Origin: a virus
DNA: 64,000 nt
Direction: 5' to 3' (one strand)
IMG/VR virus record: IMGVR_UViG_3300035698_019747
Coordinates: 88,403 to 152,402 of that record
Shown here: positions 16,228 through 54,176 of the stretch, one piece after another
How the letters are laid out: the number at the start of each line of letters is the position of its first letter
Numbering within the stretch: the stretch's first letter is position 1
Notes under the pieces: model-generated
The model's database searches: none
What the model was told of the DNA's origin: nothing
What the model saw: the letters and a program-made list of their open reading frames with translations, nothing else
Program-made: the position numbers and the translations under genes

Positions 16228-16296
16228 ATGAGAAAAATGATTTTAAATACTACATTATTAAGCATCAGCATTATTTTATTATTAATGGTGTATTGA
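16228..16296 (+). CDS. attenuator leader peptide (Leu/Ile-rich, 22 aa: MRKMILNTTLLSISIILLLMVY)
   Basis: 6 TTA Leu and 4 ATT/ATC Ile codons; directly upstream of a terminator and the tRNA-Leu(TAA)/tRNA-Ile(GAT) pair. Confidence 0.85.
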   Translation: MRKMILNTTLLSISIILLLMVY

Positions 16297-16321
16297 GTCA
16301 GTATTGAAAAATTTTTCAACG

Positions 16322-16354
16322 CCCGACTCTTAATAAGTGTCGGGTTTATTTTTT
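16322..16354 (+). terminator. attenuator terminator upstream of tRNA-Leu/tRNA-Ile
   Basis: CCCGAC-N11-GTCGGG followed by TTTATTTTTT; the 5' arm can instead pair with TATTGAGTC (16291-16299). Confidence 0.85.
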
Positions 16355-16360
16355 ATATAT

Positions 16361-16446
16361 GGTTGAGTGGTGGAATTGGTAGACACGAGGGGTTTAAAAC
16401 CCCTTGGTCAGAAATGATCGTGCGGGTTCGAGTCCCGCCTCGACTA
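16361..16446 (+). tRNA. tRNA-Leu(TAA)
   Basis: Acceptor GGTTGAG/CTCGACT, anticodon arm AGGGG-TTTAAAA-CCCCT, long variable arm, GTTCGAGTC T loop; CCA not encoded. Confidence 0.95.
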
Positions 16447-16464
16447 CTAAAAATCACATATTTT

Positions 16465-16538
16465 AGTCTAGTAGCTCAGTTGGTTAGAGCGTTTCCCTGA
16501 TAAGGAAAAGGTCGCAGGTTCAAGTCCTACCTAGACTA
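16465..16538 (+). tRNA. tRNA-Ile(GAT)
   Basis: AGTCTAG/CTAGACT, GCTC/GAGC D stem, TTTCC-CTGATAA-GGAAA; CCA not encoded. Confidence 0.95.
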
Positions 16539-16557
16539 CTAATTAAATATAATTATT

Positions 16558-18601: not shown

Positions 18602-18679
18602 GGTGGGAGATTAGGCTATGTGGTAAGTAGCACAAGCCTTCTAAAAGCTTGGACAGGGGTTCGACTCCCCCTCTCACCA
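18602..18679 (+). tRNA. aberrant tRNA-like gene (Arg-TCT with 9-nt loop, or CTA suppressor-like)
   Basis: GGTGGGAG/CTCTCACC acceptor, GCTA/TAGC D stem, CAAGC-CTTCTAAAA-GCTTG, GGGG-TTCGACT-CCCC. Confidence 0.6.
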
Positions 18680-18815: not shown

Positions 18816-19520
18816 ATGAAAGATGATTTAGGTAAAAGAATGAAAGAAAACTATGAAATAAGAACTCGTAGTTTTCTACCAAGAAGAACAAATGTCATTA
18901 TCCGTTTAGATGGTAAGGCATTTCACACTTATACAAAAGGATTGGATAAACCCTTTGACTATAAGTTAATGGATGATATGATGGAAACAACTAAATTTTT
19001 ATGTGAAAACATACAAGGTTGTAAAATTGGATACACCCAAAGCGATGAAATATCTTTACTCTTAACAGATTATGATAACATCAAAACTTCATCTTGGTAT
19101 GATGGTCAAGTTCAGAAAATCACAAGCGTGTCAGCTAGTTTAGCTACCGCTAAATTTAACCAACTTAGACCAGAGAAATTAGCATTTTTCGATAGCAGAG
19201 TTTTCGTAATTCCTGATAAAGAAGAAGTCGTGAATTATTTTATTTGGAGACAACAAGATGCAACAAGAAATTCACTTTCTATGGCATCTCAGAGTGTTTA
19301 TTCCGATAAACAGTTGTTCAAAAAGAATTCTTCTGATAAACAAGAAATGCTAATGGAAAAGGGTATTAACTGGAATGATTATCCAGTGAGTGCTAAAAGA
19401 GGTAGTAGCGTGATTAGAAAAACTTTTGATTACGAAGAAACCACAAGGAGTAAATGGGACTATACTGACATTCCTATCATAACCAAAGATAGGGATTTTA
19501 TACTCGATTTACTGCCTTAA
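18816..19520 (+). CDS. tRNA(His) guanylyltransferase Thg1-like protein
   Basis: IIRLDGKAFH, YTQSDEISL, FDSR, YFIWRQQDATRNS, KGINWN. Confidence 0.95.
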   Translation: MKDDLGKRMKENYEIRTRSFLPRRTNVIIRLDGKAFHTYTKGLDKPFDYKLMDDMMETTKFLCENIQGCKIGYTQSDEISLLLTDYDNIKTSSWYDGQVQKITSVSASLATAKFNQLRPEKLAFFDSRVFVIPDKEEVVNYFIWRQQDATRNSLSMASQSVYSDKQLFKKNSSDKQEMLMEKGINWNDYPVSAKRGSSVIRKTFDYEETTRSKWDYTDIPIITKDRDFILDLLP

Positions 19521-26700: not shown

Positions 26701-26737
26701 AACATATATATTAAAAATATATATTATTATTTATTTG

Positions 26738-26809
26738 CACGCATGGTGAGACTCGAACTCACATCAACGGTTTTGGAGACCGTTATCCTACCAATTGGAC
26801 GACACACAT
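26738..26809 (-). tRNA. tRNA-Trp(CCA)
   Basis: ACGGT-CTCCAAA-ACCGT anticodon arm; G:U-rich acceptor ATGTGTG/CATGCGT. Confidence 0.9.
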
Positions 26810-26817
26810 ATTTCTTG

Positions 26818-26911
26818 TCTAGAGAACGGGATTTGAACCCGTGGAGCATACTATCTGTGTACACTCAGCCGTTTCCAAGACGACTTGCTTAAACCACTCG
26901 CACATCTCTAG
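26818..26911 (-). tRNA. tRNA-Pro(TGG) with long class-II-type variable arm
   Basis: CTAGAGA/TCTCTAG+A, GTCGT-CTTGGAA-ACGGC, 8-bp variable stem GAGTGTAC/GTATGCTC. Confidence 0.8.
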
Positions 26912-26915
26912 TTTG

Positions 26916-26988
26916 TCGGGAAGGTAGGAATCGAACCTACTAACTGATGCTTCCAATGCACCCGTGCTTAAACCTTAGTCACTTCCCG
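26916..26988 (-). tRNA. tRNA-Pro(TGG), weak D arm
   Basis: CGGGAAG/CTTCCCG+A, GGTGC-ATTGGAA-GCATC, GTAGG-TTCGATT-CCTAC. Confidence 0.75.
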
Positions 26989-26996
26989 ATATTTTG

Positions 26997-27070
26997 TATA
27001 GTAGGTGGGATTCGAACCCACGTGCTCCACATCCCAAATGTGGCGAGATAAACCTCTCCTCTACTACTAT
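26997..27070 (-). tRNA. tRNA-Pro(TGG), A1-U72
   Basis: ATAGTAG/CTACTAT+A, CCACA-TTTGGGA-TGTGG, GTGGG-TTCGAAT-CCCAC. Confidence 0.88.
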
Positions 27071-27079
27071 ATGTATTTG

Positions 27080-27150
27080 TTGGGCTAACAGGACTCGAAC
27101 CTATAATCACTCCTTCAAAGGGAGCTGTTATGCCATTTAACTATAGCCCA
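27080..27150 (-). tRNA. tRNA-Gln(TTG)
   Basis: TGGGCTA/TAGCCCA (U1-A72), CTCC-CTTTGAA-GGAG. Confidence 0.92.
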
Positions 27151-27152
27151 AT

Positions 27153-27183
27153 AAAAAACCCACTCGGTTATGAGCGGGTTTTT
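27153..27183 (-). terminator. second attenuator terminator, immediately before tRNA-Gln
   Basis: Minus strand ACCCGCTC-ATAACC-GAGTGGGT followed by a T-run. Confidence 0.8.
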
Positions 27184-27202
27184 CTGTTATATATTGTATA
27201 TA

Positions 27203-27235
27203 ACAGAAAAGTCCTCTCATAAATGAGAGGACTTT
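27203..27235 (-). terminator. first attenuator terminator
   Basis: Minus strand AAAGTCCTCTCAT-TT-ATGAGAGGACTTT then TCTGTT. Confidence 0.8.
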
Positions 27236-27256
27236 GCTTTAAAAGTTTTAAAAATC

Positions 27257-27340
27257 TCAAGCAATAGTCTCCCATCCGAATAATCTCGGTTGCGGTTGCC
27301 ATTGCTGGTTGATAGTGATATTTAAAACTAAATTTTTCAT
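27257..27340 (-). CDS. attenuator leader peptide (Gln/Trp/Pro-rich, 27 aa: MKNLVLNITINQQWQPQPRLFGWETIA)
   Basis: CAG CAA TGG CAA CCG CAA CCG run; 3' end complementary to the terminator 5' arm; upstream of Gln/Pro/Pro/Pro/Trp tRNAs. Confidence 0.9.
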   Translation of the reverse strand: MKNLVLNITINQQWQPQPRLFGWETIA

Positions 27341-27408
27341 TACTGTATATATATTATTTTTGTTGTTCCTTTCTTAATTATAGTGCAAATATATGAAAAA
27401 GTTTTATA

Positions 27409-44957: not shown

Positions 44958-47900
44958 TTAATCACTCAATAAGTTATTATTTGAAGCTAGTGTTGCGTTA
45001 TTTGCAATGAATGTAGTACCAATAGTACTTTGGAATACTGATTCATCTACCACAATATTAGTATCCACAATATTAGTACCACCAATAAAATTAATATTAT
45101 CTGTCAATATGAAGTTTGAATCATCATAATCAATAGGTATAGAGGTGGCATAAAAAGGTATCTTAACCCTACTATCAACTACCCTAGTCTGAGTTTGATT
45201 AGCACTGCCCATATCAAATATATTCCACTGATACTCATTAGCCGTAATTGGATCGATATAATCCTTATAATTAAAGAATGGTATCTTATCTACCTCATAG
45301 TGCTTCATAGAGTAATATATAGGTGAATTTATATCATAAGTATTACTACTAGTTACACCAGTTGTGACGTTATTAAAATCTTTGGCGATAATTTTAACAG
45401 CATCTCTATATCCACCAAAGTTATTATACATAAAACTTCTCATAGTTAAACGCTGATCTATATTCTTACCAAAGTTGTTTATTTCACCACTTTTTCTACC
45501 ATCAAAGAAAGGAATAAAATCATTATCATATGAAGATATATATCCAGATGTAGAACTAGTTTCATATAATTCATTATAACCTTGACCAATTGTCAATTTA
45601 GGTAATTGAGTTGAACTGTAACTATATGTAGCTAAAATACTAATAGCGTTAGACCTATCATATGGGTTTATATAATTTATCTCATTCTTTTTCAATTCAG
45701 TATCTACCTCAACTAAATGATACCTATCTCTTGTCTTGAAAGTATTATGCCCAGATATTAAACTGCTACTTGCTCCATAGACATACATAAAGTTTTCATG
45801 TATAAACTGATCAGTAGCTACTTTAAATGTAACACCATCTGTACCAAACTCTCTTTTATATAAGCTATATGAACCAGAATTTAATATGTTAAATGTGGAT
45901 GGTCTATCAATATCACTATCGTTATTAGGTGACTTACTGAAATCAACATCATATAAAGTATTGAACTTTTTATATTTTGAGCCAAGTTCTAAACTATAAT
46001 CGATAAAACTATTTATATCATCTGGCTTAGTTACATATTTAAACCTACTCTTAGATGATAGTATATCATAACTTATATAACCAGCAGGGATATTGTACAT
46101 CTCAGTAGCAGTAGTACTTATTATAGATTTTCCAGATATGTGACTATCTACTATATTTTGGTTAAATAAACTACTAAAGTATTCAGGTTCATAAACGATA
46201 TCCATATCACTATTATAAATATACTGAACCACATTTCCTGAGGATGATATTGTACCACCTGTTCCCATTGATATGTTTTTATCACCATTCACACCCTGTA
46301 CTTCTAACTCAGTAGGACTGGTCATATCAAATGTAGTTAATGTAACATCATCAAAAAATCTCATATCTTGAATAACCCCTGAATGATATAAATCATTATA
46401 TTTCTCACCAAATTGTGGGGATATACTACTCGCATTTGAACTACGTGTATCAAAAGCACTCGCAATAGTATATTTTTTACTGATATATTTACCACCCTCA
46501 AACCTAGCCTGAATTATATGAGTATTTTCTATCTCAGTAGTTTTTCTATTACCCCTAATATAGGCATTATTCATAACCCCTTCAAAATAACCATTTAAAA
46601 ATGCACCATTTAACCAAATGTTTTTGGTAACATATATTAAGTGACGGTCACTATCTATTTCAATATTATCAATAGGGAAACTCTCTGTGTATTCTAATAC
46701 AATTCTATTGTTCTGTGGGACACGTTTAACTGAAAATACATCCTTAATTAGCTTTCTATCACCATTGATATCAATAGCAATTATATTACCAACTGTTACT
46801 TGGTCACCAACTTTTAGTTTGTTATAAGAATCACTAGAAGTCCCCTCAATATTGAAAGCACTCTCTAATACTATCTCCCATATATTCGCAGCTATTTTAA
46901 ATGATCTCTGTACATTATTGAAATGTATAACTGGTTCAGTTCTATATTTAGTCTTAACATTATCTGTATATAATGAATTTACCTGTACACTTGCAGTATT
47001 ACCACTCCCATAAGTAAATATTGTAATATTATTAGCATTATCATCTTCAATAAATGTACCCAAATCAGTACCTCTATATCCATTATTCCAAACCCCATTC
47101 TCAAAAATTCCCTTCATAAATGCCCCATTTCCAAATTGAGTATAAACACCACTCACATCTTGATAATCAGAAGGAACACTAACTGTCACATAACTATATG
47201 CGATACTATTATAACTCTCTTCTACATCTATTATATTACTATATGTTCCACCCACACTTGCTGTACCAATAGTTGAATTTAAATAATCACCACTCCAATT
47301 ATTCTTAATATGACCACCTAATGTATTATTATCAGTTTTGTAATTAACATCTACTGTCGCCTCATTAACATTTAATTGATATATATCAGTGAAATCATCC
47401 CCATTACTTGTGCCTGTAAATTCAACCTTTAAAACATATTCTAGGTTAACATCCACTTTAAAAGTATTTGTGACTGTTTGGTTATATGAGCTACTGTTTG
47501 CATTAAATAATAAATTATTACTAGATGTTCTAACACTATTAGTATATATATCATACTTAACTCTTAACACATAATTAGAAAGTGCAGCTGAAGGCTTCCA
47601 TTTTGAACTATTACTACTTGATAGTATCAATTGATACGTACCAGAACTATATTTCTTAACATCTGTTAATAATAGGTTAAAGTTATATGGGGATCTAACT
47701 TGATTGATATTTAAATTATCAGATATAAAAGTTAAATCATATCTATTACTAGCAGTTGCACTATTTACTAATGATGCTCTATATTCTTCAATAGGTGAAT
47801 TAATAATCACATTATCAAAATCTGAACCTAAGTCATGTCCAATAAAATCATAACCTGTTATTGAACTACTACCCTCTAATAAGTTCCAAACATATAATCT

Positions 47901-50900
47901 ATCGTCTTGTAAACGAGAAGCATTATTTGATAAAATGTCAGTTACAAAAGGTGTATACATATAATCACTAAAATAATCACTAATATATTCAAATGGATTT
48001 GGTGTAGAATCATTATTATAAACATTTGATATTGTGAAATTAGCACCATACCAGTTACCATTTCTAAATCTACCATTTTCCCAAATAACTGAAAATGCTG
48101 ATATATAGTTAGCGATTCCTTTTTTAAATTTAGAACCAATCATTGTACCATTATTAAACACTCCATTATTCCAATCTGAGTAGAAGAACATACCATTATT
48201 AAACACCCCATTTTCCCAAACAGTGTTTGTAGTATTTCTATCAAATTCAAAATTCATAGATGATAAATCACCAAGTTCAAAATCACCTCTTTTTACATAT
48301 GGGTTAAATATAGAGTTATCAAAGCTACCATTACTAAATGTACCTGATAACCACACACTCTGATCAAAAACACCATCAGAATCGTTATATGAACCATTCA
48401 ACCACAGTACTTTACTAAACTTAGAACCCCTCGATACTTGTCTACCATATTTATCTTGGTTAAAGAAACCAATTTGTAAATTTTCCACTGCTACTGAGCT
48501 ATCTAAATTACTTATACTAGGTGATACCTCACCATCTACCCACAAACCGAACCAATTATTATTAGAAGTAGTTTTCTTATAACCTAATTGACTTGAAGAC
48601 TGTGTAGCGACTAACCCCACTTCTATATCACTTATATAATTATCGATTGTTAGTTGGGCATTAAATCCCTTATAAATATTAGTTAGGCTAGTCTGAGATT
48701 GAGTCATACCAGAACCATTAAATTCACCAGATATAAATACACCATTCTTCCATACTTTACCGTAGAACTTACCCCCATTAAATGTACCTGTTTTCCATGA
48801 GGGATTAGCGTTACCGACATTTTTACTATCTCCAAATTCACCCCTATTAAATACCCCATCTTCCCAAGCATATAATGAAGTATATGTGTGATTAGTTCCA
48901 GATATAGTTGCTCCTATAAATATACTCTGGGTCACATAGGTTGAACCATCATATACTTTAGACACTTGTGTATCTTGTATGAATATTTGAGCACCAATTA
49001 CGTTTGATTTTTTAAGAGGGTGTTCTTTTGTTTTATCAACATTTTCAATATCTATTGGTTTAAGTTGAATATATAAATCACTAATATCACCATCAGTAAA
49101 CTCCTTTATTATCCTTTCCCCGAACCCATGTGCAGATCCATTATCACTAAATGTATCTACTACCGAACTTTCAGTACTGGGGAATAAATATTTAACCTGA
49201 CCATCATTAGTATCAAGTACTAACGTCCCAATGTTATTAAAACTATTATCACCATATATATCACGGAAAGATGATATAGTATTATTATTTAAAAAAGAAT
49301 CATATACGTTATTGCCATAATCAAAAACTAATTCTTCACCACTTTGGGTACCTGCAATACTAGAAAAATCATATTCCCCCCATATTATACCTAAATGTCT
49401 ACCATAAGTAGATGCAAAAATACCATTATTAAATATACCATTTTTCCATATAACTGATCCAATAATCTTCCCATTATTAAATGTACCATTTTCCCATATA
49501 GTCACATGATTATTTATAGAGCTGAATATACCACTATCAAATGTACCATTTTTCCACACGATATTTCCTGTATTCACATACTTATTGGTAGTTAAAATAT
49601 AATCACTTGCATATATACTATTCACTGTGGATAATTGATCTGAATTATCGCCAAAGACACCATTTCTAAAAGTACCATCTTTCCACACACCATTTCTAAA
49701 TACATTATTTATATTAGAAGAGGTGATATCACCAAATACTCCACCATCCCATACACCACCTAGAAATTCACTATTGCTAAACTGACCACCACTATGCGTT
49801 CCAGATAACCAAACAGATTTACCTATATATCCATCAGTAAACGTACCATCATGCCAAGCAGGTATTATTGCCTTATTACCTACTGTATAGAAAATATTAT
49901 TAATTGGTATTAAGTTATCTTCTGTATCATATTTACCATTAATAAATTTACCTGAGATATGGTTTCCACTTAAAACAGCAGACCTTTCAATATATGAATT
50001 AATAATATTAACATTCTGAAATGTTTGTTTATATGCGTTACCAGTGAAATTCATATTAGAGGTTGTCACATAATCACCTGTTAAGTGACCATGTAATAGG
50101 TGACCATTATATATCTCCACATTATCATTAATACTTATCTCAGATCGAATAAGTGATAACCTTCTAAGGTTTTTATGGTTCAAATCATTTAAACTAAACC
50201 CTTGGTTATTTACTTCTACATTTTTAAAGGATTGGTTTTTAAAGACACCACCATTTACCTTTAATGTATTATTTATTCCATCAATTCTATTACTGTTCAA
50301 AAAGGTCTTATCACTTATTAAGTTAACAAAACTCTGACTATATGTGAAATTTAAATTATATGGAATTAATTCATTTGATGCTCCTATGTGATAGTTACCA
50401 CTTATATCATTTGATAAAGTAGTATCCCATGTATTATTTAACCAATATACCTCATCCGTTTTTAATATTTCATTTAATAGTTCATAATTTCCATAGTTCA
50501 TACTAATTGACATCGTTCCTGATGTAGATGAACTAGCAGTTCCTGATAAAAATGTATTTGCTAATTGATCAGCATTAAATATAGAACCATTAACCCAAGT
50601 ACCACCATTTATCCAAGAGTTATTAAAGTGTCTTATTTGAATAGTAGAATCGCTATTTAAAGCAGTTATTTTAAGCGAATTGTCACTTTTAAGTGCATTA
50701 TTATATATAGAACTATCTGATCCATATTCAATAGTATCTGAAACAATTTCTAAATCTATTGAAAAATTTGATATAAAACTAGTATTATCAATGACAAGGT
50801 TTGAACCATCATATTTTATTGTAGTTTTTGTAGAATTTTCTAATTTATTTTTTCTAGTTATTATAACTTTGAAGCTAGTTTCCTTAAAATTATTACTCAC

Positions 50901-53900
50901 AATTTCATTAAAGTTTTCATAAACATCTTGATAAAACCCATCTACACCACTCATAACATAGAATAATTTATCTAATATATTTGTGTAATAAGGGCTACTA
51001 GTTTTAACTGAATTAAATATTACTTTATCTTTAAATTTTAATTTCATAAAGTCTTTTTCTGATATGAAGAATTTATGAATATGTATTATATCTTGATCAG
51101 ATACATTATTCCTGATATTATACCACTTATCATAGTCTAGTACTTTAATATCACCTTTATTCTCAACTATACCATTGGTCATTTTACTATCATAAACATC
51201 AGTGTTCACAATAGTAGTATTTTCATTTATATTTGAACTATAAATTTCAGATTCTTCAATAAATGTGTTATTTATTAAATTACTTCTAAATATTGAATTA
51301 TAAGCATGTAAGTTAGATATATCAATCTCACTATAACTATAAGTGCCTGAATTACTATAAATATTATTCAAAAGAGAACCCTCATCAGATCCTATTTGAG
51401 AATTAATAGCATTTGCATTTATAATAATTGCCTTTTCAATAACACTATCTATAATATAGTTATATCCATAACTAGCGTTATTATCCAAGTTCATTATAGT
51501 TGATACTCTATTACCTATCAATTCCGAATAATAGTTTTTACTTAAAATAATATCACTTTTTGAATCCATTTTACCAGACACCCACGTAGAATTATAAAAT
51601 ATACCATTTCTCCAATTAACATTATCTCCATCCCATATACCATTTGTGTCTTTATCCCCAAATATTCCATCATTAAATGTTGAATTATTAAAAGAACCCT
51701 GATTAACTTTAGCCTTTGTTAAATAAGCATTTTCATAACTTGAATCTTTAGACCATATTTTAGTAGTGTCATTAAACTTATATACTTTCCCCTTATCATA
51801 TGATATACCATCATATGATAAATCGTCCATTATTAACAATCTATTATTCTTGAAAATATCACTATTTAATGGTATATTATTATTATCTACATTAACAGTA
51901 TAATAAATATTATTAATTATATCAAAGCTATATTCAAACATGAAAATACCATTCTCAGTTGCTGCCCATATTCTGTTCACATCACCAATCTTTTCAAATA
52001 TTGTTTTCTTAACACTATTAGATGGTAAATCATCTCCAAAAATTGATGTAGTTGTTTTTAATTGAATACTAGTATAATTTTCTATAAATTTTTGTAAAAG
52101 GTAAATTCCATTATTAGTAGAACCCCCCAGTACATTAAACCTGGGAGAGCTATCACTAGAAGATATTGCCCATGTATTATCCTTTACACTTATATGAGAT
52201 GGACTTTCTACTTGATTTAACTCTTTATTAAATGTATATACCACATTATTTAAAACATTTAAGCTATAAATATAATCACCACTCATGCTTATAATAGGAT
52301 ATTTTCCATCTATAATATTAGAATTGGTTTCCATATCAAACGTTCTATCCTCACCTATATTACTAAGTTGTACCGGTGAATCTTGTGTTAGTTTTTTTAT
52401 TACTATATGTGCTTGTGGAAACCCATTTTGCATTTGGTTTAAAAATGTAGTATTATTAGCCAATAATTGGTGGTTAAAGTTAGCATATAAATAATATATA
52501 TTACCTGATGAAGATGTTATTAGATATTTTGAATAATATATACCACCATTTGATTGTATTATTTGTGAACCACCTGTATTTACAGCATATCCAATACCAA
52601 GACCCAAATTTATTTTCTCTGTTCCTAATAGCTTTATATCCGTAAAATTTAGAACTTCGTTATATGTTATATCTATAAAAGGGTTAAAACTAGTAGCCGC
52701 CCAAACACCACTTGTATATTTATCATATACCTCTTTAGATATACTAAAACCATTACCCATATATGATAAATCATTATTATAATCATACCAAGTTCCACTA
52801 TAACTATATAAATATATACCACCATATTCACTATCTGATGATGGATCAGTTGCAGAAAAGTTCCTGCCCAATATAGCTACCTCAATGTTATTTGATATAT
52901 CCTCAACATTCTCGAAATAATTAACATTAATACTAGAAGCCCTACCAATTCCATTGAAACTAGCATAACTGGGAACAATAAAACACTCATCATTACTTTT
53001 AGGAAAATGTAAATTGCTTAGTGGGTATGAGAGTGAGCCTTCGGAACTAGATAAAACGAAGTATGGACTAGTTAATGCATTACTATTATTATAACCCAGT
53101 GATGCTATACTAAAAGTTGCGCCCTCATTATTAGGCATTGGCATTTGATTAGAATTTGTTCTGTTATAAAAACCAATTGTTGAAAAGTTATCAGCGGTTA
53201 TTGGTTCATCAAATCCTACTATAAAAGTATCAGACATATCTACGCTATAGGTGAGTCCACTTTCTACAATAATACCTATATTATTCATATAGTTAAATTG
53301 ACCAGAAACATTACTTGGTAATTTAATAGTCGTATTTATACCTCGCCTGTTTCCCAGAAATCCTTTGAATATTGACCCAATAACATCATTCTGATCAGTA
53401 TCAGTTAATGGAGTAGATATATTTGCTAAGGTTCTTTTATTAAATTCCCATATATTAGTTGGTTGATCTTCAGCATTTGCAGTAATAGCATAAATAAAAT
53501 CATTAGTACTATTATAAATATGCTCAATGTCAGTAATATAATCACCATTACTATTACCAATAGTAGTACTTCCAGTATTACCATTAGTTCCTGATATAGA
53601 ATAAACATCAACTTCGGCTAACTTAAATTTAAGCGCACTACTAGAAAAAACTTGTCCTCTATTTACACTAAATGTGAGCCCAGGGGCTTGATCATAATAA
53701 GACTTAAAGAACTTCCCATTTGTGTTATTTTCAATAGTATGTGGCATATTCTCAATCGTAGAAAATAAGATATTGTTATTATTAGTACTGTATTTGTAAC
53801 CAGATTTTTCTGATAAGTTATAATTATTACTAGTGTTTTCATATCTAAATTTAGATAAACTATCCACTAAATATACCTTAGTATAATCCTCATAATCACC

Positions 53901-54176
53901 TATCTCCCAAACTGTTTCTTCTCTATAAGGTATATCTAATACAATACTATTATTTGTTATCTCTAATATCTTATATCCAGTTGTTCCATATTGGTATTCA
54001 TCTATATTTAATAAATCTGTATTATCATAATTCCCATTTGTTATATAAACATAATTACCCACTAATAATTCAGTATTTATTTCTGTGTAAAACTTTGTAT
54101 AAGCCACACCATTTAAGGTATAACTCTCAGTCTTATTAATTAATTTAGATGAATATGTTTCCTGAATAACAGACAT
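44958..54176 (-). CDS. giant (3072 aa) probable virion protein with W.NG.F.NG-type repeats
   Basis: S/T/N/G-rich; many WxxGxFxxGxF 5-residue-periodic units; TTAATATATA at 54205-54196. Confidence 0.7.
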   Translation of the reverse strand: MSVIQETYSSKLINKTESYTLNGVAYTKFYTEINTELLVGNYVYITNGNYDNTDLLNIDEYQYGTTGYKILEITNNSIVLDIPYREETVWEIGDYEDYTKVYLVDSLSKFRYENTSNNYNLSEKSGYKYSTNNNNILFSTIENMPHTIENNTNGKFFKSYYDQAPGLTFSVNRGQVFSSSALKFKLAEVDVYSISGTNGNTGSTTIGNSNGDYITDIEHIYNSTNDFIYAITANAEDQPTNIWEFNKRTLANISTPLTDTDQNDVIGSIFKGFLGNRRGINTTIKLPSNVSGQFNYMNNIGIIVESGLTYSVDMSDTFIVGFDEPITADNFSTIGFYNRTNSNQMPMPNNEGATFSIASLGYNNSNALTSPYFVLSSSEGSLSYPLSNLHFPKSNDECFIVPSYASFNGIGRASSINVNYFENVEDISNNIEVAILGRNFSATDPSSDSEYGGIYLYSYSGTWYDYNNDLSYMGNGFSISKEVYDKYTSGVWAATSFNPFIDITYNEVLNFTDIKLLGTEKINLGLGIGYAVNTGGSQIIQSNGGIYYSKYLITSSSGNIYYLYANFNHQLLANNTTFLNQMQNGFPQAHIVIKKLTQDSPVQLSNIGEDRTFDMETNSNIIDGKYPIISMSGDYIYSLNVLNNVVYTFNKELNQVESPSHISVKDNTWAISSSDSSPRFNVLGGSTNNGIYLLQKFIENYTSIQLKTTTSIFGDDLPSNSVKKTIFEKIGDVNRIWAATENGIFMFEYSFDIINNIYYTVNVDNNNIPLNSDIFKNNRLLIMDDLSYDGISYDKGKVYKFNDTTKIWSKDSSYENAYLTKAKVNQGSFNNSTFNDGIFGDKDTNGIWDGDNVNWRNGIFYNSTWVSGKMDSKSDIILSKNYYSELIGNRVSTIMNLDNNASYGYNYIIDSVIEKAIIINANAINSQIGSDEGSLLNNIYSNSGTYSYSEIDISNLHAYNSIFRSNLINNTFIEESEIYSSNINENTTIVNTDVYDSKMTNGIVENKGDIKVLDYDKWYNIRNNVSDQDIIHIHKFFISEKDFMKLKFKDKVIFNSVKTSSPYYTNILDKLFYVMSGVDGFYQDVYENFNEIVSNNFKETSFKVIITRKNKLENSTKTTIKYDGSNLVIDNTSFISNFSIDLEIVSDTIEYGSDSSIYNNALKSDNSLKITALNSDSTIQIRHFNNSWINGGTWVNGSIFNADQLANTFLSGTASSSTSGTMSISMNYGNYELLNEILKTDEVYWLNNTWDTTLSNDISGNYHIGASNELIPYNLNFTYSQSFVNLISDKTFLNSNRIDGINNTLKVNGGVFKNQSFKNVEVNNQGFSLNDLNHKNLRRLSLIRSEISINDNVEIYNGHLLHGHLTGDYVTTSNMNFTGNAYKQTFQNVNIINSYIERSAVLSGNHISGKFINGKYDTEDNLIPINNIFYTVGNKAIIPAWHDGTFTDGYIGKSVWLSGTHSGGQFSNSEFLGGVWDGGVFGDITSSNINNVFRNGVWKDGTFRNGVFGDNSDQLSTVNSIYASDYILTTNKYVNTGNIVWKNGTFDSGIFSSINNHVTIWENGTFNNGKIIGSVIWKNGIFNNGIFASTYGRHLGIIWGEYDFSSIAGTQSGEELVFDYGNNVYDSFLNNNTISSFRDIYGDNSFNNIGTLVLDTNDGQVKYLFPSTESSVVDTFSDNGSAHGFGERIIKEFTDGDISDLYIQLKPIDIENVDKTKEHPLKKSNVIGAQIFIQDTQVSKVYDGSTYVTQSIFIGATISGTNHTYTSLYAWEDGVFNRGEFGDSKNVGNANPSWKTGTFNGGKFYGKVWKNGVFISGEFNGSGMTQSQTSLTNIYKGFNAQLTIDNYISDIEVGLVATQSSSQLGYKKTTSNNNWFGLWVDGEVSPSISNLDSSVAVENLQIGFFNQDKYGRQVSRGSKFSKVLWLNGSYNDSDGVFDQSVWLSGTFSNGSFDNSIFNPYVKRGDFELGDLSSMNFEFDRNTTNTVWENGVFNNGMFFYSDWNNGVFNNGTMIGSKFKKGIANYISAFSVIWENGRFRNGNWYGANFTISNVYNNDSTPNPFEYISDYFSDYMYTPFVTDILSNNASRLQDDRLYVWNLLEGSSSITGYDFIGHDLGSDFDNVIINSPIEEYRASLVNSATASNRYDLTFISDNLNINQVRSPYNFNLLLTDVKKYSSGTYQLILSSSNSSKWKPSAALSNYVLRVKYDIYTNSVRTSSNNLLFNANSSSYNQTVTNTFKVDVNLEYVLKVEFTGTSNGDDFTDIYQLNVNEATVDVNYKTDNNTLGGHIKNNWSGDYLNSTIGTASVGGTYSNIIDVEESYNSIAYSYVTVSVPSDYQDVSGVYTQFGNGAFMKGIFENGVWNNGYRGTDLGTFIEDDNANNITIFTYGSGNTASVQVNSLYTDNVKTKYRTEPVIHFNNVQRSFKIAANIWEIVLESAFNIEGTSSDSYNKLKVGDQVTVGNIIAIDINGDRKLIKDVFSVKRVPQNNRIVLEYTESFPIDNIEIDSDRHLIYVTKNIWLNGAFLNGYFEGVMNNAYIRGNRKTTEIENTHIIQARFEGGKYISKKYTIASAFDTRSSNASSISPQFGEKYNDLYHSGVIQDMRFFDDVTLTTFDMTSPTELEVQGVNGDKNISMGTGGTISSSGNVVQYIYNSDMDIVYEPEYFSSLFNQNIVDSHISGKSIISTTATEMYNIPAGYISYDILSSKSRFKYVTKPDDINSFIDYSLELGSKYKKFNTLYDVDFSKSPNNDSDIDRPSTFNILNSGSYSLYKREFGTDGVTFKVATDQFIHENFMYVYGASSSLISGHNTFKTRDRYHLVEVDTELKKNEINYINPYDRSNAISILATYSYSSTQLPKLTIGQGYNELYETSSTSGYISSYDNDFIPFFDGRKSGEINNFGKNIDQRLTMRSFMYNNFGGYRDAVKIIAKDFNNVTTGVTSSNTYDINSPIYYSMKHYEVDKIPFFNYKDYIDPITANEYQWNIFDMGSANQTQTRVVDSRVKIPFYATSIPIDYDDSNFILTDNINFIGGTNIVDTNIVVDESVFQSTIGTTFIANNATLASNNNLLSD

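Follow-up and report, generated by a model that had tools for sequence, protein, structure and literature searches.

The tRNA block and its leader region

The DNA analysed here (the window) forms the final 64 kb of a 152-kb virus contig, with a G+C content of 28%. Among annotated phage records, the closest matches to the contig's gp32-like SSB (33-39% identity) came from four uncultured huge-phage genomes of 634-735 kb, which we take to be those of the huge-phage survey (PMC7162821). From sequence alone, a Bacteroidota host was inferred, based on TAnnTTTG boxes before leaders and the absence of Shine-Dalgarno sequences.

Five phage tRNA genes (Gln, three Pro and Trp) lie directly downstream of an intrinsic terminator (terminator 2). 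These and the other features described here are on the minus strand unless indicated otherwise. The first gene of the block encodes tRNA-Gln (UUG; 27079-27150). It is followed by tRNA-Pro (UGG) with a standard body (26996-27070), an atypical Pro-like tRNA with a UGG anticodon (26916-26988), which scored 37 bits in Rfam and was missed by ARAGORN at default settings, a tRNA-Pro (UGG) with a long variable arm (26817-26911), and tRNA-Trp (CCA; 26737-26809). The three UGG tRNAs (26817-27070) differ in body, being standard, poorly paired in the D-arm (the one missed by ARAGORN) and long in the variable arm, respectively. The corresponding block of a metagenome contig, L160, likewise includes an odd tRNA-like gene.

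Some other features of the contig were noted. At 18605-18678 (plus strand) there is an isolated tRNA with a CUA (amber) anticodon, which no leader precedes, and coding density gave no hint of TAG recoding. Two CUA-anticodon tRNAs are found in LR756501 (L316). Just 3' of the amber tRNA is a gene for a Thg1-like tRNA-His guanylyltransferase (18816-19520, plus strand; PHROG 4717, E 2e-90). A recoded genetic code was ruled out, as coding density barely shifted (85% versus 87%). The window also contains an ORF of 3072 aa (44958-54176, minus strand), and the longest perfect hairpin of the contig is an AT-rich one of 29 bp (G000:C1:47559-47622).

Upstream of the tRNA block, a Bacteroidota-type -7 promoter box matching the TAnnTTTG consensus (PMC6847099) was found at 27386-27393, with a start predicted near 27381. 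Its function is inferred. Matching boxes also precede the L160 leader and the leader of a Ser/Arg tRNA block on the same contig. An AT-rich phage motif at 27348-27355 is a candidate late-promoter box, a role that is also inferred; of 106 ORFs, 29% have this motif in the 70 nt before them, compared with 1.9% of coding 70-mers that contain it.

The leader ORF (27257-27340) encodes a peptide of 27 aa, without a Shine-Dalgarno sequence and with G at -3 instead of the preferred A. Its codons 12-18 (27287-27307) specify Gln Gln Trp Gln Pro Gln Pro. With Gln, Pro and Trp together at 5.8% in the genome, a run of seven such codons is expected by chance at about 5e-8 over 20 positions. These amino acids are the same as those of the tRNA block behind the leader. 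In our model, the regulated genes are predicted to be these tRNA genes and not genes for amino-acid synthesis.

Both Pro codons of the leader are CCG, which is rare (2% of the Pro codons of the genome). In the leaders of Pro-tRNA blocks (L001, L002, L060, L160 and the window), CCG made up 7 of 19 Pro codons, versus 2% in genome genes, and these blocks supply mostly UGG tRNAs. It is possible that such leaders test wobble reading or U34 modification.

The region between the control codons and tRNA-Gln can form a series of alternative helices. A protector (1:2) hairpin (27260-27306; core 27306-27299 with 27267-27260) lies between the control codons and the antiterminator strand. Antiterminator 1 (AT1, 27223-27275) is formed by 27275-27259 and 27239-27223, with 16 pairs, including one G-U, and two single-base bulges. 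Pairing this good was found in only 7 of 4000 random genome segments. Terminator 1 (27201-27235) consists of a hairpin of 13 Watson-Crick pairs (27235-27208) and an interrupted U tail (27210-27201). Next is a perfect 14-bp middle hairpin (27180-27210), one of only seven perfect hairpins of at least 14 bp across the 152-kb contig. This hairpin is proposed to absorb the U tail of terminator 1 and to bring together the two strands of antiterminator 2 (AT2, 27168-27222; 27222-27213 with 27177-27168). AT2 has 9 of 10 possible pairs, with one A-G mismatch, and was equalled by 7 of 4000 random segments. In the window it is lengthened by pairing of the loop of terminator 2 with the loop and arm of terminator 1. 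Terminator 2 itself (27151-27182; hairpin 27182-27155; -17.7 kcal/mol) has a tail of 6 U that abuts tRNA-Gln.

A possible third locking helix (27160-27283; 27283-27276 with 27167-27160) is weak. It was equalled by 89 of 4000 random segments, its strand is free only at stalls up to about codon 16, and no counterpart was seen in L160. The fold of the whole region was strongly stabilized against shuffles (z = -10).

Terminators 1 and 2 resemble each other and can be aligned along their length, both in the window and in L160. Terminator 2 is thus likely to be a duplicate of terminator 1, as judged from sequence alone, and such a duplication would by itself create the cross-pairing in AT2. Terminator 2 is unlikely to act as a plus-strand stop, as no long gene on that strand leads up to it. 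Matches to miRNA in the region were merely the hairpins. Apart from a chance frame inside terminator 1, the same strand has no ORF start between the terminators that would give 20 aa or more.

A first-pass annotation, made without database searches, had described this region as an attenuator with two terminators in series linked by a relay of pairings. Its QQWQPQP run, hairpins and pairings held, with every base confirmed. These included the near-full AT1 pairing and the perfect middle hairpin. The pairing of the freed 3' arm of terminator 1 with the 5' arm of terminator 2 also held, with the A-G mismatch not having been mentioned. The annotation did not include the tRNA genes as the target, the interrupted U tail of terminator 1 or the protector hairpin.

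Folding and kinetic models of the leader RNA

The leader was modelled with nearest-neighbour energies, a fixed 13-nt ribosome mask and direct-path barriers. Such models provide support, not proof. The first-pass annotation had suggested constrained folding with the ribosome masked at the control codons versus the stop codon. When this was done by equilibrium folding of the full-length RNA, both terminators were favoured at every ribosome position. Such masked equilibrium folding is not suited to testing a switch that acts during transcription, and this result indicated that the ON state, if it exists, is a kinetic one.

Co-transcriptional intermediates, on the other hand, distinguished the two ribosome positions, giving the AT1 plus AT2 fold for the control codons versus terminator 1 for the stop codon. 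Before the 3' arm of terminator 1 emerges, the probability of AT1 was about 1 for ribosomes stalled on codons 12-19. In the absence of a ribosome it was 0 in the window and 0.91 in L160, which lacks the protector hairpin. The model thus predicted that, in the window, a leader without translation should be OFF as well, with the protector hairpin hiding the antiterminator strand. The barrier from AT1 to terminator 1 was 10.4-11.6 kcal/mol for stalls at codons 14-18 and 8.0-9.7 kcal/mol for stalls at codons 12, 13 and 19. It rose to 18-19 kcal/mol once AT2 had formed. The modelled switch point was between codons 19 and 20.

When the 5' arm of terminator 2 is out, the combination of AT1, the middle hairpin and AT2 was the unconstrained minimum in both phages, but only with a stalled ribosome (-41.8 versus -38.3 kcal/mol for the alternative in the window, and -32.7 versus -28.6 kcal/mol in L160). 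A ribosome placed on the stop codon gave terminator 1 in place of the AT1 fold. When foreign terminator arms were swapped in for that of terminator 2, this minimum was lost in nearly all cases: the RNA's own arm outdid 76 of 77 foreign arms in the window and 78 of 79 in L160, one being as good in each case. The ON fold, at 0.98 when intact, dropped to at most 0.14 when AT1, the middle hairpin or the loop of terminator 2 was broken in silico.

In the kinetic model for the window with AT1 locked, 86-100% of molecules had terminator 2 blocked across five parameter sets. In the isolated kinetic model of L160, terminator 2 displaced AT2 in about 80% of molecules, leaving about 20% blocked. In a rough full-length simulation, stalls at codons 12-18 gave terminator 1 in 0-8% of molecules, as against 100% for ribosomes at codons 20 and 28. 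Terminator 2 was blocked in 0% at codon 12, 9-11% at codons 14 and 16, and 100% at codon 18. This simulation was coarse, under-sampled and unstable for terminator 2.

The earlier proposal that one stall at the Gln/Trp/Pro run disables both terminators was thus supported by computation only, for an ON state that is kinetic, with the relay only partly effective in the L160 model. The proposal that a ribosome at the stop codon lets both terminators form was supported in the folding models.

The homologue L160 and sister units

One true homologue of the leader was found, in L160. It shares the promoter layout, a homologous leader ORF with an identical 20-nt control stretch, the Trp/Gln/Pro block and the two serial terminators. 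At least this one homologue exists, and more are likely. AT1 of L160 keeps its outer 7 bp unchanged, and the inner stem is rebuilt with a different sequence. Terminator 1 carries a G-C to A-U change. Terminator 2 has changes at four paired positions or, alternatively, a shift in register. The middle hairpin is at the same place with a different sequence, and is weaker. Where AT2 of the window is interrupted by the A-G mismatch, the L160 sequence forms a G-C pair, through a change that also leaves its terminator 1 with a weaker U-G pair.

When viral contigs were scanned for the pattern, no close homologue emerged; the only hit was L060, with a Trp-Gln-Pro leader, a conserved open frame and a single terminator. 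Among bacterial genomes 36 matches were obtained, none of them ahead of a tRNA, so the leader was not found in host chromosomes at that sensitivity. In 41 related phage records, further single-terminator units were found and no tandem. Overall, tandem terminators were present in only 2 (the window and L160) of about 42 units. Since the other 40 or so, including L060, have one terminator, we interpreted the tandem arrangement as a lineage-specific elaboration. Two sequences are too few for covariation statistics, and selection on AT2 could therefore not be demonstrated statistically.

Codon-matched leaders, on the other hand, were common. All three multi-tRNA blocks of the contig have one. The Leu/Ile unit (16228-16539, plus strand) consists of a leader (16228-16296) and a single terminator (16322-16354), followed by tRNA-Leu(UAA) and tRNA-Ile(GAU). 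This leader uses only TTA for Leu and only ATT or ATC for Ile, never the common ATA, so that all of these codons can be read by the tRNAs of the block. The Ser/Arg unit (contig positions G000:C1:53831-54452, plus strand) has a Ser/Arg-rich leader and a terminator, followed by tRNA-Arg(ACG) and four tRNA-Ser. Upstream of its leader, the sequence is almost the same as that before the Gln/Pro/Trp leader.

Units were collected blind to codons, by taking a terminator ahead of a tRNA gene and the longest ORF of 10-50 codons before that terminator. Over 30 units from 10 phage contigs, the match between leader codons and the block had a mean z of 3.8, versus 0.28 +/- 0.31 when permuted (maximum 1.7; 0 of 20,000 permutations), even with three mis-picked or irrelevant ORFs in the set. 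The 3' end of the leader also paired with the 5' arm of its own terminator at a mean of -11.1 kcal/mol, versus -7.5 +/- 0.4 kcal/mol when permuted (0 of 20,000). This set contained 28 units, two wrong ORFs having been dropped and the L160 ORF corrected. Some units in the panel are orthologous, and the permutation counts overstate their independence; the effect sizes are large. On other contigs, outside this sample, some 14 additional leaders matched their blocks, as judged by eye. The match extended, imperfectly, to isoacceptors: 53 of 82 informative codons were read by the block versus 37 expected, which is significant.

Two other arrangements were observed. Within some tRNA arrays (L001:3316, L002:3471, L305:1948), a tRNA gene is immediately followed by a second leader and terminator, as with poly-Gln leaders ahead of runs of Gln tRNA, which would give nested checkpoints. 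In L084 and L120, the leader of a Lys/Arg/Asn/Met block also lists Gly, Glu, Asp and Ile, which are the tRNAs of later blocks, with inserted ORFs in between.

Interpretation of the double-terminator leader

The region has the hallmarks of a leader-peptide attenuator, namely a short ORF with clustered codons and intrinsic terminators before the first gene, both known only as sequence, and a mutually exclusive antiterminator, known from the models. In the absence of RNA, ribosome or reporter data, we consider it very likely that a ribosome-mediated attenuator of the phage tRNA-Gln/Pro/Trp operon is real. We are less certain of the two-terminator relay, which is predicted by the models with no RNA data; we lean modestly towards its being functional. 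The same slight preference applies to the full account, of interlocked terminators gating the tRNA operon of a giant phage in a Bacteroidota-type host.

In the proposed mechanism, RNA polymerase would transcribe the leader with a ribosome behind it. When Gln, Trp and Pro codons are decoded quickly, the folding models predict that the ribosome passes codons 19-20 and covers the antiterminator strand, and terminator 1 forms. A polymerase leaking past the imperfect U tail of terminator 1 would then meet terminator 2, which can form because terminator 1 holds its own 3' arm. This is the OFF state. When the tRNAs are scarce, cleaved or uncharged, the ribosome would stall at codons 12-18, and AT1 would capture the 5' arm of terminator 1. 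The middle hairpin would take the U tail, and the freed 3' arm would capture the 5' arm and loop of terminator 2 as AT2. In the kinetic models AT2 would also lock AT1, letting the polymerase enter the tRNA genes (ON). The new tRNAs may relieve the stall, closing a feedback loop.

The ON fold must last for about 50 nt past terminator 1, and terminator 2 would therefore re-test the same stall 1-2 s later. We infer that this would cut leak and filter out brief pauses. A ribosome resuming once terminator 1 is behind the polymerase would melt AT1, so that terminator 1 regains its 3' arm and terminator 2 forms.

Because tRNA is the product, the signal is inferred most likely to be a loss of functional tRNA in the infected cell, for instance to host anticodon nucleases or to tRNA decay. 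The strict use of block-readable codons by the Leu/Ile leader supports functional tRNA as the signal.

Three other explanations were considered. It is possible that the attenuator is real and only one terminator acts, terminator 2 being a duplicate and AT2 a by-product of the duplication. Terminator 2 would then serve as a leaky cap without regulation, as an element for processing or pausing, or as the true switch, terminator 1 being in decay. The alignment of the two terminators over their length in both phages agrees with this, as do the some 40 units (the Trp-Gln-Pro leader of L060 included) that manage with a single terminator, the interrupted tail of terminator 1 in the window and the weak relay in the L160 model. 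Against it, an unregulated terminator 2 of such stability, with its 6 U before the first tRNA, would silence the block despite a stall, so that relief is needed. Moreover, AT2 reaches bases in the loop of terminator 2 that were not copied from terminator 1, and L160 retains a middle hairpin in the corresponding position, with a different sequence.

It is less likely that the relay works as described and responds to amino-acid starvation or slow elongation (such as EF-P-type pausing in Pro-rich sequences) instead of tRNA loss. Classical attenuators do sense charging. The rare CCG at both Pro codons, its excess in Pro-block leaders (7 of 19 versus 2%) and the imperfect isoacceptor match (53 of 82 versus 37 expected) also favour this alternative. 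On the other hand, a shortage of amino acids is not cured by extra tRNA, each leader tracks its own block over many amino-acid sets, and the Leu/Ile leader uses only codons that its tRNAs read and shuns the common ATA. Finally, the ORF might be untranslated or non-regulatory and the hairpins constitutive terminators or processing sites, the tRNAs being reached through a phage antitermination factor or by leak. Translation of the leader is indeed only inferred, G occupies -3 in place of the favoured A, and a related phage encodes a NusG-family protein. We consider this alternative very unlikely, as it accounts neither for the block-specific codon match nor for the own-terminator pairing in 28-30 units, and the open frame is conserved in L160 and L060.

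The ribosome-mediated relay that we prefer can be compared with known systems. Attenuators controlled by leader peptides include trpL, hisL, pheL and leuL of E. coli, the multivalent thrL and ilvGMEDA leaders, and pheM-pheST; pheL is a documented example (PMC3082878). Like the amino-acid operon leaders, the present one has a short ORF, a run of control codons and antiterminator and terminator elements, with a stall predicted to give ON and run-through OFF. A protector hairpin, as in those leaders, is present in the window and absent in L160. Several amino acids are read by a single leader, as in thrL and ilvGMEDA. Unlike in those operons, the leader is phage-encoded, antitermination would be relayed to a second terminator, and what follows is five tRNA genes, not biosynthesis, transport or synthetase genes, so that the products are the very molecules inferred to be sensed. 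The Rfam models Trp_leader, Thr_leader and Phe_leader scored 21-30 bits against cut-offs of 41-55, on the terminator hairpins only. These scores, far below cut-off, indicated no sequence homology with the Trp, Thr and Phe leaders.

The mgtCBR leader of Salmonella also has two attenuation points and uses Pro codons as a sensor. Its attenuators, mgtM and mgtP, have two ORFs and two signals, which are independent and additive (PMC3641672), whereas here there is one codon-matched ORF and one inferred signal, and the second terminator would depend on the first through direct pairing between them. Tandem T-box and riboswitch leaders, such as B. subtilis thrZ and the tandem TPP riboswitch of B. anthracis, have a sensor domain for each terminator and involve no ribosome. 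They resemble the present system in that serial terminators sharpen the response to one signal, and T-boxes sense tRNA. An Rfam search of the window gave no T-box and no riboswitch.

The tRNA-Tyr of phage T5 counters retron-Eco7, and its expression has been attributed to a strong promoter (PMC11555353). That phage tRNAs act against host tRNA-cutting defences has been put forward as a hypothesis (PMC10264068). In the present case, too, the phage tRNA blocks are a likely answer to tRNA depletion. Text searches of these two papers found no mention of attenuation or leaders. Attenuation of tRNA genes or phage tRNA blocks, or a relay of this kind, was not described in the literature searched, which left out most subscription papers. 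If functional, the relay is a new wiring of attenuation, with one sensor and two terminators.

A bolder reading is that giant phages audit the functional tRNA pool of the host codon by codon and transcribe only the depleted block, as an inducible counter-defence against anticodon nucleases, with a single stall read twice by interlocked terminators as kinetic proofreading of its duration. We offer this reading tentatively, and would not yet count on all of its parts holding together.

Why phages carry tRNA genes has been an open question for decades (PMC10264068). A leader that names the codons it monitors predicts which tRNA shortage turns on which block, and such leaders would separate codon compensation from counter-defence. 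If the mechanism is true, the relay would be a compact, low-leak in vivo reporter of Gln, Pro and Trp decoding.
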